Below, piece after piece: positions 58,781 to 64,000 of a stretch of DNA of 64,000 nt; within the stretch, counting starts at the first letter, position 1, and the number at the start of each line of letters is the position of its first letter. The translations under genes were made by a program, and so were the position numbers. The stretch comes from Phyllosticta citribraziliensis (lineage: Eukaryota), in the NCBI RefSeq assembly GCF_038025025.1, contig NW_027117340.1, positions 682,001 to 746,000 on the forward strand, read 5' to 3'. Below the pieces are notes generated by a model. The model saw only the letters and a program-made list of their open reading frames with translations, was not told where the DNA came from and did not search any database.

Positions 58781-59070
58781 GAATATATACTACCTATTAT
58801 AATAGTAAATTAAATAAATAAATAGATAGATAGATAGAGCTAAGAGCTAGTATAAGTAGTATTAACCTACCTAGATAGAATAGACTACTACTATAGCTAG
58901 GATAACTATTATCTAGGACACTATAATACCTTGCCTTAGATAATAGATTTATGCGCATTTAATATAACGCATCACGTTAATGTAGTGCAGAACCTGCATT
59001 CATAGTGCCATGGTGAGTAAAGGAAAGCTGGTCGTCTAACAGTTCAGAAACACTTCAGTCGAAAATTGCA

Positions 59071-60024
59071 CTAGAACAGGTACCCTCTCTCCCTCGTCAT
59101 GTCCGCCACCCACGTTCTCAAAGCTCCAAAGTCCCGACAGGTGTGTCTCCTCTCTGTCTCTCCAATGAGCAACACACTCGTCTTCTCTTCTCCATTTTCG
59201 ACAGTTTTCCACTCGGTCGCCTTGAGCGACACAGGCGTCACGTCAGCGCTGCACATGAGCGCCTCGCGGATCTGGTTGATGCAGTGATCGATGTGGACGC
59301 GCTCGAACCCAGGCTGGATCTCGTGCGAGTGCGTCTTTCCGTGTGTGGCCTCGCCGCCACCGGTGCCGTCGGTCTGGAAAAAGCTGGCATCGTCGACGTG
59401 CTTGCGCAACATGTTTAGGCAGTGCAGGTTATGCAGGACGTCCACGCCGGCGTACTTTTTGCCTTCTTTTTCCTCCAGGCCGGCAGCGTGCGGAAGGCCC
59501 GTAATGGGGTAGACATGCGGGTCGTCCCCCTTCGAGCTGTCGCGCATGCCATCAATGGCGTCAACCTCGGCGTCTGTGAGGGCAAAGTAGCGAGGTGAGG
59601 TCAAGTCGTTCCAGGCCTTGTCGCGCTCTTCCGAGGGTGGACCCACGAAGCGGGATGCCTCGGGGTCCTTGATGCCGTAAAGGGTACCATTGTCGTACAT
59701 GCGGAACGGATACTCAAACCGCCGCTCTGATGGCTCGAAGATGTGTGCTGGAACCGTGGGGAAGTCGGTGGGTGCCCGTAACGCGTTCGCCGGTTTGGAG
59801 TGGAAGACATTCCTTCCGTCAAAGAATTGGGCCACGTTGGTAAGAGCTAGGACAGCCGTGGCTATTTGCCATGGTCGCTGAGGTTTTCTCTTGAGAATTG
59901 AGAGGGGGCGGGCGTCCACGTCGTCCCGGTTCGACCTGAAGTCCTGTTCATGCTTGGAAAAGGCTGCGTCAGCCTCTGCCACGGGCAGAAGTCGGTATGA
60001 CTGATCAGAGGTGTTCTCGGGCAT
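59071..60024 (-). CDS. DUF3328 / UstYa-family oxidase (putative RiPP-modifying enzyme), ~317 aa, apparently intronless
   Basis: Two HxxHC motifs (VLHNLHCLNMLRK; VHIDHCINQIREALMCSADVTPV), FVGPPSEERDKAWNDL and C-terminal HTCRDFGALRTW form the canonical DUF3328 motif set. N-terminal hydrophobic anchor PWQIATAVLALTNVAQFF. Likely ATG at 60024 (MPENTSDQSYRLL). Confidence 0.92.
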   Translation of the reverse strand: MPENTSDQSYRLLPVAEADAAFSKHEQDFRSNRDDVDARPLSILKRKPQRPWQIATAVLALTNVAQFFDGRNVFHSKPANALRAPTDFPTVPAHIFEPSERRFEYPFRMYDNGTLYGIKDPEASRFVGPPSEERDKAWNDLTSPRYFALTDAEVDAIDGMRDSSKGDDPHVYPITGLPHAAGLEEKEGKKYAGVDVLHNLHCLNMLRKHVDDASFFQTDGTGGGEATHGKTHSHEIQPGFERVHIDHCINQIREALMCSADVTPVSLKATEWKTVENGEEKTSVLLIGETERRHTCRDFGALRTWVADMTRERGYLF

Positions 60025-60687
60025 GGTTGAGGAGAGGTGAAGAAGGCGTGTCTCTAAGATCTCTACACAGAGGAGTGTGGAAACTTTGTCAAGAAGCTGC
60101 CGCCGGACTTGCCATGTTCGGACCCGACCATAACGCGTGATGCCGAACATCGGTGGAGAGATCAGGCCTTCCCCCGCAAACGAACACGAGGTTGTCTTAT
60201 CAGATCATCGTTGCCAGTAACTGGAATGGCCAAGGAGATCCACTGTACACGTTAGAGAAATGCACCAAATCACCAACCACCAGCGCGACCTGCCCATTCG
60301 AGTCAGGAACCCGAAATGTTCGGGCTTGGCACCGTCATTGGCCTGAGCGGTCCGAGCTTGGCGTTCGGCGGTAAGCCGCCCTGGCAGCAGCCGTCACCCG
60401 GAGCCTATCTGATTCGGGTAGCGTTATCTGATCATTACCGCAGTGAGATTCTTAATTCAAGCTTCAACTTAAGCATGGGTCTCGCCTGGCTCTTGAATCG
60501 CCGTGACCGTCATCAGAGGAGTGCCCGGAGCCATTTTGAAAAGCCGATTGGAAAACTCCGGCTCTAGGACTCACGGGTGCATTTGCACACAGGTATATCA
60601 GACCATGATCTTTCGCCATCAGGTCGAGCCATTGCGCTCTCAGTTCCTCTCAACAGCCTCAGCAACCTCGCCGCCTCAAAAGTCAAG
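60025..60687. promoter_or_regulatory. Shared divergent promoter of the DUF3328 and precursor genes
   Basis: 663 bp between head-to-head ATGs. CCCGGAGCC at 60397 and 60524, inverted CTCCGG at 60556, TATA-like GTATAT at ~60593. Confidence 0.5.
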
Positions 60688-61629
60688 ATGAAGTTCCAGA
60701 TTTCCATCGTTGCCGCCCTCGGTATGTCCGCCTTCCACGTCGGCTCCATTCCCCTTGGCACTGGATCTCAATTTCTGACACATTTTCAGCTGCCGGCGTC
60801 ATGGCCGCTCCCGTCCCCGACGGTCCCATGTAAGTGTTCAAGAACAACCAAAGGTTTTTCCATTGCTGACCAAACCAGCTGCGTTGGCGGTGGCACCTCG
60901 TGCGTCAAGGCCCGTGACACTAGGGTTGAGAAGCGCGACGGTCCCATCTGCGTTGGTGGCGGCACCTCGTGCGTTAAGGCTCGCGACGGCCCCATCTACA
61001 TTGACCCTGAGGTTGAGAAGCGTGATGGTCCTATCAACATCGACACCACCACCAACGAGAAGCGCGACGGTCCTATCTGCGTTGGCGGCGGCACCTCATG
61101 CGTTAAGGCTCGCGACGGCCCCATCTACATTGACCCTGAGGTCGAGAAGCGTGATGGTCCTATCAACATCGACACCACGACCCATGAGAAGCGCGACGGT
61201 CCCATCTGCGTTGGCGGCGGTACCTCGTGCGTCAAGGCGCGCGACGGTCCCATTTACATTGACCCTGAGGTCGAGAAGCGCGACGGCCCCATCTACATCG
61301 ACCCTGAGGTCGAGAAGCGTGACGGCCCCATTTGCCTTGGTGGCGGCACCTCCTGCGTCACTGGCAAGGCCAAGCGCGAGGCTGAAGCTGAGGTCGAGAA
61401 GCGCGACGGTCCTATCTGTGTTGGCGGCGGCACTTCGTGTGTCAAGGCGCGTGACGGCCCCATCTACATTGACCCCGAGGTTGAGAAGCGTGATGGCCCC
61501 ATCTGCTTGCCTGGAAGCACCAGTGTCTACTGCAACAAGAAGCGCGCGGCCGAGGCCGAGGCTGAGGTCGAGAAGCGCGACGGCCCCATCTGCCTCGGCG
61601 GCGGCCTCTCGTGCGTCACTGGCAACTAA
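60688..61629 (+). CDS. Secreted Kex2-processed repeat protein (KEP), putative dikaritin RiPP precursor, 274 aa; exons 60688-60721, 60790-60829, 60879-61629
   Basis: Introns 60722-60789 (GTATGT..CTGAC..CAG) and 60830-60878 (GTAAGT..CTGAC..CAG) splice to give signal peptide MKFQISIVAALAAGVMA-APVP and restore a perfect first DGPICVGGGTSCV unit. Fifteen DGPI-initiated units follow, separated by KR/KAR/KKR, with EAEAEVE spacers. Confidence 0.9.
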   Translation: MKFQISIVAALGMSAFHVGSIPLGTGSQFLTHFQLPASWPLPSPTVPCKCSRTTKGFSIADQTSCVGGGTSCVKARDTRVEKRDGPICVGGGTSCVKARDGPIYIDPEVEKRDGPINIDTTTNEKRDGPICVGGGTSCVKARDGPIYIDPEVEKRDGPINIDTTTHEKRDGPICVGGGTSCVKARDGPIYIDPEVEKRDGPIYIDPEVEKRDGPICLGGGTSCVTGKAKREAEAEVEKRDGPICVGGGTSCVKARDGPIYIDPEVEKRDGPICLPGSTSVYCNKKRAAEAEAEVEKRDGPICLGGGLSCVTGN

Positions 61630-61899: not shown

Positions 61900-64000
61900 T
61901 TTACCTTCTATCCCTTTACTTCTAGCGAATTTTAGATAGATGGGAGGGGAGGTTTTTTTTTTAAAAAAAAATAAAAAAGGTAAGTAGGGGTAGAGAGGCA
62001 TAGGCACATATTTAGTAAAGCTATAGAAGCTATTTCTTCTTCTTTATAGGATATAATAATCTAACTAGATATTTATAGTACTAATTTAGGTATAAGAGTT
62101 ATCCTATTTCTTAGGCTATCTATATAGCTAAAGTACCTATCTCCTATAACTACTAAGCTTACTAAGCTTACCCTTAGTATCTAATAGCTATAGTAGATCC
62201 CTATAGAATCTACTACTATAGGTAGTAGCTAAAGTAGTTTATAGATACTCTTACCTATATCTACTATCTAGCCCTCTATTATATACTTAATTAATCTATA
62301 TACTTAATCTATATACTAAAATCTATAAACCTAATCTATATACTAATCTACTAAACTATAGTAAAAGGAGGGAAAGGAAATAGGGGGAATTTTACTTATT
62401 ATTATTATCTATTACTATCTACTCTAGATTCTTCTCTTATTTACCTCTAGTATCTAAGAGGTAGGAGCCTATAACTATAGGATCCTACTCTAATCTAATC
62501 TTAGCTATAGTATTATTATCCTAAGACTATTTACTACTTAAGTACTTAGATTATAACTAGTTATTATTATTATTATTAATTACTCTATTAACCTTATATA
62601 TTATACTATTCTTATTATTCTTATCTATAGTACTATTAGTATTAGACTTATCTTTATTATTATATAGGTTAGTTAAGGCTAATATCTTATTTTTAAGATT
62701 AATATTTTCTCTACTATCTATTATACTAGGGTATTATATTATAGATAGAAGTACTAAGGGTCTACTAATCTAGGGTTACTTAGAGCTAGGCTTATTAGGT
62801 CTAGGTACTAGCTTAGTCTTTATAGGCTACTTCTTCTTAGGCTTAATTATAGTTATAGAGGTCTTAGAATTCTTACTCTTAGGATTCTTACTATTATTAG
62901 TCTTTAAGCTATATTATAGTTTATTACTTAACTTCCTAGATCTAGTTATACTAGTAAATATACCCTAGTAGTATAGTATAGGTATTATAAGGCTAGATTT
63001 ACTAGGTATTATACGCTATATAGCGCGTATAGTTTATATTTTATAGTATTTAGTACTTAGTATTTACTACTTATATATATACTGGCTATTTATACTAGCT
63101 AAGGAGTAGATAGTTATTCTATATAGGCTATATAATAACTACTCTTACTCCCTACCTATTAATTATTAGTAGTCTATATTAATTTACTCTACTAGGTACT
63201 ATAATACTATTAATAGGTCTCTTACTACTTATAAGAGGATAAGACTTATTATCTATCCCTTACTAATAAGTTTTCTTACTTTAATTATGCCCTATATAGT
63301 ATTAGGATAAAATACTATATATTTAGATATACTAGAAGCTCTAGGTATTATTATTATTTATAGTTATAGCCTTAGATAAGGCTAGTAAGTAAGATTATAA
63401 GCTATTATAGCTCTAGATATAATAGAGACTTATTATCTTATTATATAATATAGTTAGGAACCTATATAATAGCTAAGAGTAGCTAGTCTACTAGTAGTAC
63501 TAAGCTATTAGCTACCCTCTAAATAATACTAATAGCTAGCTAGTAGTTAGCTACTACTAGCCTATTATCTACCTAACCTATTACCTTAGTAGGTAATAAT
63601 AATAATAAACTACCTATTACTACTACTATTCTAATAATATAATAGCTCTAGGAGTAGGTCCTAGGACTTGTATAGGTAATTTATAATAGGGGTAATATAC
63701 TAGGCTATAAGGTCTAGTACTAGTTTACTAATCCTAAGTACTAGTCTAGTAGTAGCTCTTATAAGGACTATTATATATAGTATAGTAGTATTAAGGATAA
63801 GCGATTATTTAATACTTATTATAAGCTAATAGATTACCTAATTAGTAGATAGTTTCTAAGTAACTATTTACCTTATACTAGGGTATATAAGTATAGGAGA
63901 TAATACTAAGTAAGAGAGTATATAAATAAGATAGAAGTTAAATTAGTACTAAGTCTACTTAGGAGTATTAATTATAAGAAAATAAAGATAGCTATCTATA
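61900..64000. repeat. AT-rich RIP-degraded repeat DNA, continuing beyond the window; includes copy 2 (~63011-63814) of the 27.7-28.5 kb repeat
   Basis: Same TpA-saturated composition as the main block; direct similarity to 27681-28480. Confidence 0.9.

Follow-up and report, generated by a model that had tools for sequence, protein, structure and literature searches.

A two-gene Phyllosticta locus pairs a Kex2-repeat precursor rich in two-cysteine units with a putative DUF3328 oxidase

A divergent gene pair in AT-rich DNA

The window analysed here, a 64,000-nucleotide stretch of the Phyllosticta citribraziliensis genome, carries two divergent neighbouring genes: on the forward strand a spliced gene (60688–60721, 60790–60829 and 60879–61629) that encodes a repeat precursor of 274 residues, and on the reverse strand a single-exon UstYa/DUF3328 gene (59071–60024) that encodes 317 residues and matches PF11807 with 121.7 bits (E = 5.5e-35). 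The enzyme start was placed at the Met common to the shorter orthologues; the database model begins 42 codons earlier, at 60150. The two start codons lie 663 nt apart, the adjacency looked for in a dikaritin locus, and the gene orientation suggests that the region between them (60025–60687) is a shared promoter. An earlier note, made from the letters of this DNA, had read the locus as a multi-peptide precursor with a DUF3328 enzyme, and this part of its reading is supported: the precursor is a real, spliced Kex2-repeat gene with a signal peptide, and its neighbour is an intact-looking DUF3328 gene.

Together, the two genes form a 3-kb island in RIP-type DNA. On the enzyme side, the AT-rich, CpA/TpG-depleted sequence extends over about 31 kb (27500–58950; GC 0.23–0.31), with a composite RIP index of 1.1–1.95 per kb from 28001; on the precursor side it occupies 61900–64000 and continues through all 60 kb beyond the window, at least 62 kb in total. 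These 60 kb contain no open frame of 150 residues or more, the island holds no third gene, and no tyrosinase, transporter, peptidase or methyltransferase gene was found near it. Contigs were compared from four sequencing runs (X2, X4, X6 and X9). Those of X4 and X9 run past the island (at 59020–59060 and from 61745 onward) and there enter other sequence, of unremarkable composition, so that the RIP-type flanks may be a peculiarity of the source lineage.

The gene pair is conserved within the genus Phyllosticta. The enzyme is annotated in five species, its Phyllosticta orthologues are 96, 87 and 85% identical, and the relative represented by X9 is approximately 93% identical over the enzyme gene and the intergenic region. 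One X2 contig (59043–60370) spans the enzyme gene; the X2 contigs end at 60370 and restart near 60640, and X4 and one X9 contig cross the intergenic region, the enzyme 5′ end being bridged to the precursor start by single contigs (X4 record 12, 59989–60918; X9 record 18, 59061–60721).

Splicing of the precursor gene

Introns were sought among all GT..AG pairs of 40–120 nt, on condition that the first repeat unit stay in frame. Exactly one two-intron model passed, and its introns contain CTGAC branch sites. Exon 1 (60688–60721) encodes the start of the signal peptide and is followed by a 68-nt GT..AG intron (60722–60789); exon 2 (60790–60829) holds the signal peptide end (to 60806, by inspection), the dipeptides AP-VP (60807–60818) and the start of unit 1; the second GT..AG intron, of 49 nt (60830–60878), falls within an Ile codon of that unit; and exon 3 (60879–61629) carries the repeat array and the stop codon. 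By eye, the N terminus has the basic residue, the hydrophobic stretch and the small residues up to Ala17 that mark an ER signal peptide. Both exon joints were present, precise to the letter, in contigs of X2, X6 and X9, three of the four runs, and absent from those of X4; three of the four runs are classed as RNA by guess, and X4 looks DNA-like. Because the joints occur in contigs, the reading, AP-VP ahead of unit 1 included, is backed by spliced molecules, and the precursor is real and transcribed. Contig depths, which are unsuited to ranking expression, were not counted as evidence.

The two introns, 117 nt in total, contain no in-frame stop, and the unspliced gene is also open (313 residues); shifted and antisense frames of 60688–61629 likewise carry long open frames by which gene callers could be misled. 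None of four alternative readings (unspliced, shifted, antisense frame and an intergenic ORF) was found in the protein collection. Pfam matches on the precursor to DUF6299 and Cthe_2159 fell below the cut-off and were rejected.

Composition of the repeat array

The precursor contains 15 units headed by DGPI, namely eight two-Cys units (DGPIC), five Tyr units (DGPIY) and two Asn units (DGPIN), and besides them three plain spacers, a DTRVE remnant, EAEAEVE and AAEAEAEVE. The unit list of the earlier note (8 Cys, 5 Tyr, 2 Asn and DTRVE) agreed exactly with the spliced translation, as did its five KAR ends, its four 27-residue Cys–Tyr peptides and its AP-VP before unit 1; the two X-Ala spacers are additional. 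With its 15 DGPI units and 12 KR sites, ten of which are followed by Asp, the protein has the sequence features of a KEP, defined by 8–100-residue units between KR sites. A repeat scan gave a tandem-repeat score of 652 with a 129-nt period, and this score, taken with the silent-only differences between copies, indicates that the array is not a product of chance.

Along the forward strand, canonical Cys unit 1, which ends in KAR and is split by intron 2 (60819–60915), is followed by the DTRVE-KR remnant in the post-Cys slot (60916–60936). A Cys unit ending in KAR (60937–60984) then runs into a Tyr unit ending in KR (60985–61023), with Asn unit 1 behind it (61024–61065); the same pair recurs (61066–61113 and 61114–61152) ahead of Asn unit 2 (61153–61194) and again (61195–61242 and 61243–61281) ahead of a Tyr unit that stands free with KR on both sides (61282–61320). 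Next come a variant Cys unit ending in KAKR (61321–61377) with its EAEAEVE-KR spacer (61378–61404), a fourth Cys–Tyr pair (61405–61452 and 61453–61491), and a second variant Cys unit with a C-x8-C loop, a PG dipeptide and a Tyr (61492–61545), which is followed by the AAEAEAEVE-KR spacer (61546–61578). The last Cys unit and the stop codon close the gene (61579–61629). Of the five canonical Cys units, all of which end in KAR, four continue into a Tyr unit and so form a 27-mer. Tyr is present in only six units (the five Tyr units and one variant Cys unit), and no unit has two. If a disulfide closes, the loop would be an 8-residue ring in seven Cys units and a 10-residue ring in one; that such Cys-rich cores are unlike those of described dikaritins, as the earlier note had held, proved correct.

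As minimum counts over repeat copies that are related, not independent, the five canonical Cys units differ by 12 synonymous and no replacement changes (P = 1.6e-7) and the five Tyr units by six synonymous and none (P = 9.5e-5). Since both sets of copies differ silently only, these counts show that the peptide sequence of the Cys and the Tyr copies is under selection. The YIDP part of the Tyr units adds just two of the silent changes and is not evidence for selection on the Tyr residue itself. A single residue separates the two Asn units (DGPINIDTTT followed by N or H, then E); a script scored them at one synonymous and two replacement changes, one of which is by inspection a silent third position.

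The slot behind the Cys units

An acidic stretch with VEKR at its end comes after every Cys unit except the eighth, which closes the protein; in four of these seven cases the stretch is a Tyr unit. Conversely, four of the five Tyr units in the window occupy this post-Cys slot, which elsewhere holds DTRVE or the X-Ala spacers. The Tyr and Cys heads differ in three codons by one G/A transition each (TGC/TAC, GTT/ATT and GG/GA), and the Tyr tail, GAC CCT GAG GTC GAG AAG, is two bases away from the spacer tail, GAA GCT GAG GTC GAG AAG. From these sequences we infer, as the simplest history, that a deletion fused the head of a Cys unit to the tail of a spacer and that the unpaired Cys was lost, the direction of change not being polarised. 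The claim that one precursor encodes three peptide classes thus stood in part: all three unit types are present and the Tyr units do not drift freely, but Tyr and Asn units mostly sit in the spacer slot and look like head–tail chimeras.

X9 has an Asn unit attached to the first KAR (joint 60918–61027) and also a 14-letter loose end, which suggests that a Cys unit comes straight after a KAR. Another X9 piece covers 61167–61301, including the KAR–Tyr junction, gap-free and with nine other letters, and the piece over the free-standing Tyr unit (61272–61331) has one other letter in 60 nt. One X4 contig (depth 8.9) has 35 differing letters in the interval from 60910 to 61306. Translated in frame by hand, it has K-D-K-R in place of KAR and then a 12-residue acidic, Ala-rich spacer that has neither DGPI nor Tyr and ends in EVE before KR; the argument for an ancestral spacer here draws on this one contig, of low depth and from a mixed run, and only on the first slot, where the window has no Tyr either. 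By their sequences the relatives fit a variable post-Cys slot, and we propose an order of Cys first and Tyr later that is not polarised by an outgroup.

The same slot lends itself to a simpler reading, in which the Cys units are the sole products and the Tyr, Asn and DTRVE segments are acidic pro-segments that aid Kex2 cutting or solubility and are then degraded. All three kinds of segment occupy the spacer slot, share its EVEKR tail and have a net charge of −3 to −4, and the slot varies across relatives. We nevertheless regard this reading as decidedly unlikely, given the silent-only divergence of the five Tyr copies (six changes to none), the whole Tyr unit that X9 keeps with a single difference, and the Tyr unit that stands free between two KR sites.

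Predicted processing

Alanine at P2 lowers Kex2 efficiency, and a proline in the third position blocks dipeptidyl (Ste13-type) trimming. When cleavage sites were compared from P4 to P4′, five read VKAR↓D, eight of the KR sites read VEKR↓D and one variant unit read KAKR, and KAR has the look of a KxKR site that has eroded. The earlier note had suggested that units ending in KAR may stay joined to their neighbours. Joining is possible, but all five sites keep the P4 Val and the P1′ Asp of VEKR↓D, sites cleaved by Kex2 are reported to be enriched in acidic P1′ residues (PMC2515848), and in Pichia some KEP peptides were found to have been cut after a single Arg (PMC9769878). Partial cutting at KAR, giving both monomers and 27-mers, would be expected. 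The monoisotopic masses calculated for the predicted peptides are 1362.627 for a Cys unit ending in KA (1360.611 with a disulfide, 1358.596 after the loss of another 2H), 1245.576 for the Tyr unit (1243.561 after the loss of 2H), 2746.294 for the 27-mer (2744.279 with a disulfide), and 1288.578 and 1311.594 for the Asn units. The genome holds one kexin P-domain gene and one DPP-IV (Ste13-type) gene; the two lie approximately 14 kb apart on one contig (G000:C3 1582326–1597324).

Secretion of the protein mostly in uncut form, as a polypeptide with repeats that sits at the surface or binds metal and has an unrelated enzyme for a neighbour, would suit the weak membrane anchor of that enzyme (see below) and the fact that processing is a prediction from sequence. 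This is highly improbable in view of the 12 KR sites, ten of them before Asp, the X-Ala and X-Pro dipeptides, and the isolation of the two genes together with a linkage that is kept in relatives.

The DUF3328 enzyme

The enzyme contains two HxxHC motifs that are invariant in the alignment, HNLHC (H198–C202; 59419–59433, reverse strand) and HIDHC (H244–C248; 59281–59295, reverse strand), giving the HxxHC(x)nHxxHC copper site of a DUF3328 dikaritin enzyme; two further Cys are also invariant. In residues 52–70, the best 19-residue Kyte–Doolittle mean is 0.87, compared with 1.8–3.0 in five distant homologues. The putative anchor (59815–59871, reverse strand) is unusually polar and near-identical across the Phyllosticta orthologues. 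Judging by this segment, targeting of the enzyme may differ from that of other DUF3328 proteins. The AlphaFold model, with a pLDDT of 37, was unusable for fold comparison, and no solved structure related to the oxidase by sequence was found.

Four other PF11807 loci are present in the genome. A simple scan for repeats, which covered about 16 kb around each, found a typical Tyr-rich KEP at one of them, where some ten DEYGSYNPY-type repeats lie by a UstYa gene (G000:C4, about 1578300–1579100, reverse strand; L059), a conventional dikaritin candidate. Approximately 2 kb from another UstYa gene lies a Ser/Gly/Gln-rich frame with KR and RR sites (G000:C1, about 833000–834000, reverse strand; L061), possibly a further repeat precursor.

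Searches for homologues and the DGPI head

A search with the precursor against 8,000 candidates of 126–403 residues returned one match, Sclerotinia borealis SBOR_3760 (E = 1.6e-8), and none was found among 8,000 longer candidates. In the 50% library, P0001 was the sole credible one of nine matches; of the other eight, four (P0017, P0021, P0022 and P0024) were inspected, proved to be unrelated repeats and were rejected. The ESM Atlas gave no usable match, and a metagenome scan gave 599 pattern matches, none confirmed; all six exact EKRDGPIC matches were single chance occurrences. Within the genome, a protein search (one match) revealed no paralogue, and the sole outside KRDGPI match was rejected as part of an unrelated long ORF. 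Phyllosticta does not appear in the tables of the KEP survey (PMC7329392), and the main text of two Phyllosticta genome papers mentions neither UstYa, DUF3328 nor pheromone. A plant cyclopeptide core ending in P-I-Y was considered for comparison, was not found in the accessible part of PMC11253845 and was dropped.

The repeats of SBOR_3760 are KR-DGPI units without Cys or Tyr and belong to Umemura type 172; in none of the seven members of this type does a DUF3328 gene lie within 15 genes, the sequence having been compared for SBOR_3760 alone. By chance, a DGPI head would be expected 0.07–0.18 times among 6,278 repeat sub-types.

These matches bear on the model of the earlier note, which had three co-equal classes, DGPI as the docking site, and a DUF3328 enzyme that uses the position-5 side chain or joins Cys to Tyr in the 27-mer. 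The head is indeed invariant in all 15 units, with a minimum of four silent and no replacement changes among related copies; the position-5 residues (Cys thiol, Tyr phenol and Asn amide) all bear a heteroatom; there is one enzyme for all units; and the KAR–Tyr junction is gap-free in the X9 relative. However, the only other DGPI-repeat precursor found is of a type without DUF3328 (7 of 7 members), which weakens the idea that DGPI is an enzyme recognition motif, and plainer causes exist in the common descent of the repeats, the P1′ Asp preference of Kex2 (PMC2515848) and a Pro-3 cap against dipeptidyl trimming. In addition, a replacement separates the two Asn copies, a disulfide is the simplest fate for paired Cys within the ER, and neither a Cys-based DUF3328 crosslink nor a description of this locus was found in the open-access literature. 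We consider the model as a whole unlikely; within it, DGPI may be a handle for the enzyme, and Cys–Tyr or thioether crosslinks in the units are at most a possibility.

Likeness to an alpha-type pheromone precursor

A separate alpha-type pheromone precursor, a 190-residue one-intron model, is encoded on another contig (G000:C2, about 1077700–1078340, reverse strand; L046–L048). It has three C-x3-G-Q-P-C units and X-Ala spacers, with Phe, not Trp, before the first Cys, and its units follow phi-C-x3-G-Q-P-C-x-(K/M)-(A/V)-KR. A first pheromone pattern, with a leading Trp, gave seven scattered matches in the genome and no repeat gene; a second gave ten (control, six), three of them clustered on contig C2. 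With this canonical-looking precursor elsewhere, the precursor gene in the window is not needed as the source of the mating pheromone and is probably not the gene for it.

The Cys units have in common with the alpha-type precursor the loop length, the loop Gly and the K-A-(K)-R tail (C-x3-G-x2-C..K-A-(K)-R). When the two Cys and the basic site were kept constant, their score was reached in 117, 218 and 168 of 5,000 random draws and in 10, 38 and 187 of 5,000 shuffles of their own residues. With six following residues, the canonical units were not significant (about 0.06–0.11); with the spacer, the two variant units were matched in 0–22 of 5,000 (at most 0.004), a result driven by the generic X-Ala spacers. 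Over the whole protein, the likeness was not significant (147 of 1,000 shuffles). The likeness of skeletons is modest and post hoc, the comparator having been picked after it was seen. A GQ or PG beta-turn dipeptide is described as a feature of alpha-type repeats (PMC10569646); GQ occurs in none of the eight Cys units and PG in one. A Ste13-type XA/XP run lies directly ahead of unit 1 only, the X-Ala spacers being closed by their own KR.

Taken as a trace of ancestry, this likeness would make the precursor a neofunctionalised alpha-pheromone duplicate whose loops act on a GPCR, the fungus's own Ste2 or that of a competitor, the oxidase tuning or ignoring them. The units do align at Cys, loop length, loop Gly and tail at the frequencies given above, STE2 is present in the genome, and the closest precedent comes from Rutstroemia, where a pheromone homologue that carries Tyr segments and lies two genes away from a DUF3328 gene has been proposed as a possible intermediate (PMC7329392). 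Set against this are the comparator chosen post hoc, the lack of significance for the whole protein and for canonical units with their following residues, the near-absence of GQ and PG, Cys-unit loops without aromatic or basic residues, and intron positions that differ from those of the alpha-type gene; moreover, the two Cys of the Fusarium pheromone can form a disulfide, which inactivates it (PMC7289986), and 98.6% of surveyed pheromone-type KEPs have no DUF3328 nearby (PMC7329392). This signal is, in our estimate, an improbable one. Equally doubtful is a pheromone duplicate turning into a RiPP, with Cys units from the alpha-pheromone, a captured DUF3328 acting on the Cys unit or the DGPI head, and Tyr substrates arising secondarily by single G/A changes; if true, it would imply Tyr-independent DUF3328 RiPP chemistry (thioether, desaturation or hydroxylation on a disulfide-loop peptide).

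A proposed role for the locus

The best explanation, which we favour with modest confidence, is a minimal two-gene dikaritin-like Phyllosticta locus that makes Cys loops and acidic units and has one putative copper oxidase acting on them. We suggest that the precursor enters the ER, where each two-Cys unit would close a disulfide loop. Cleavage by Kex2 would follow at the 12 KR sites and, at a lower rate, at the five V-K-A-R↓D sites; Kex1 would trim the basic residues, leaving a KA end on six Cys units, and a Ste13-type enzyme would remove AP-VP, so that all units start with D-G-P. The Cys-loop peptide would be the main, ancestral product, and the Tyr and Asn units would be younger chimeras that took shape in the spacer slot; they would leave the precursor as acidic peptides, some of them within the 27-mer. 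A single luminal, Cu/O2-dependent DUF3328 enzyme could oxidise these peptides, and the products may serve as secreted signalling or competition peptides.

DUF3328 enzymes are reported to be Cu/O2-dependent and to carry out halogenation, hydroxylation and macrocyclisation (PMC12435403). Our first guess at the reaction, held at somewhat less than an even chance, is an ether from the Tyr oxygen to a beta-carbon in the Tyr unit, most likely at Pro3 or a neighbouring Ile. The second guess, oxidation of the head common to the 15 units or of the Cys unit, is tentative, and it is rather doubtful that the enzyme does not act on the precursor at all. Several observations count against the favoured explanation: the Y-I-D context of the Tyr fits neither the YxI of ustiloxin and phomopsin nor the di-Tyr core of asperipin, none of the tyrosinase, transporter, peptidase or methyltransferase genes looked for is near the pair, and the predicted membrane anchor of the enzyme is weak.

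The layout itself is ordinary. Among 7,878 surveyed KEPs, 22% (1,758) have a DUF3328 gene nearby, with a peak at the adjacent gene, and several repeat types within one KEP are common (PMC7329392); mixed repeat types alone are not novel. The cargo, by contrast, is out of the ordinary: most of it consists of two-Cys loops that lack aromatic residues, whereas an aromatic side chain takes part in the DUF3328 RiPP crosslinks that have been described. As a single enzyme is paired here with a single precursor and further tailoring genes are missing, the locus offers a clean test of DUF3328 action on Cys-loop peptides and of recognition; it also provides a concrete example for the proposed evolution of dikaritin precursors from those of pheromones. 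The precursor itself was not found in protein searches, though its enzyme is annotated in five Phyllosticta species, and a secreted, transcribed peptide family of citrus-associated fungi may have gone unnoticed.

Comparison with known systems

By its genes, the locus is a KEP locus and a DUF3328-defined dikaritin candidate, for which Kex2 cleavage is predicted and Tyr-ether chemistry may occur; it would function as a minimal locus of the asperipin type. Like the asperipin-2a cluster (aprA/aprY) of Aspergillus flavus, it combines a signal peptide and Kex2 repeats of more than one type with one DUF3328 gene and no tyrosinase (PMC6514808, PMC7329392); for asperipin-2a, one DUF3328 enzyme is reported to be needed and Tyr-to-beta-carbon ethers to be made (PMC6514808). 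In contrast to that cluster, the locus has no transporter or reductase gene and no aromatic-rich core, and 8 of its 15 units are two-Cys units. With ustiloxin and phomopsin it shares a KEP precursor beside a UstYa-family gene with a double HxxHC, but it falls outside their subgroup: its Tyr stands in a Y-I-D context, not a YxI core, no tyrosinase, methyltransferase or other tailoring gene is clustered with it, and it has one DUF3328 gene, not 2–5. The epichloecyclin genes gigA/gigB resemble it in imperfect repeats that yield several peptides, a single DUF3328 and 27-mer Kex2 units with follower parts (PMC10540207); the locus differs in having no methyltransferase or dedicated kexin gene, and GigA cores, as described there, have no Cys loops.

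Alpha-pheromone precursors and the Rutstroemia Ccg-4 homologue share with the locus a C-x6-C loop with Gly at loop position 4, the K-A-(K)-R tail, X-Ala/X-Pro dipeptides, and two-Cys and Tyr segments near DUF3328 (PMC7329392, PMC10569646), whereas the locus has neither the GQ turn nor an aromatic N terminus, and the DGP head replaces the Ste13 runs before 14 of 15 units. The Sclerotiniaceae KEPs of type 172 (SBOR_3760) have similar KR-D(G/S)PI-headed repeats, but theirs contain no Cys or Tyr and have no DUF3328 within 15 genes (7 of 7). Finally, acalitide of Acaulium album is likewise a disulfide-bridged fungal RiPP, yet it is described as a single core, cyclised head to tail by a peptidase, with no Kex2 repeats or DUF3328 in the available account (PMC10840396).
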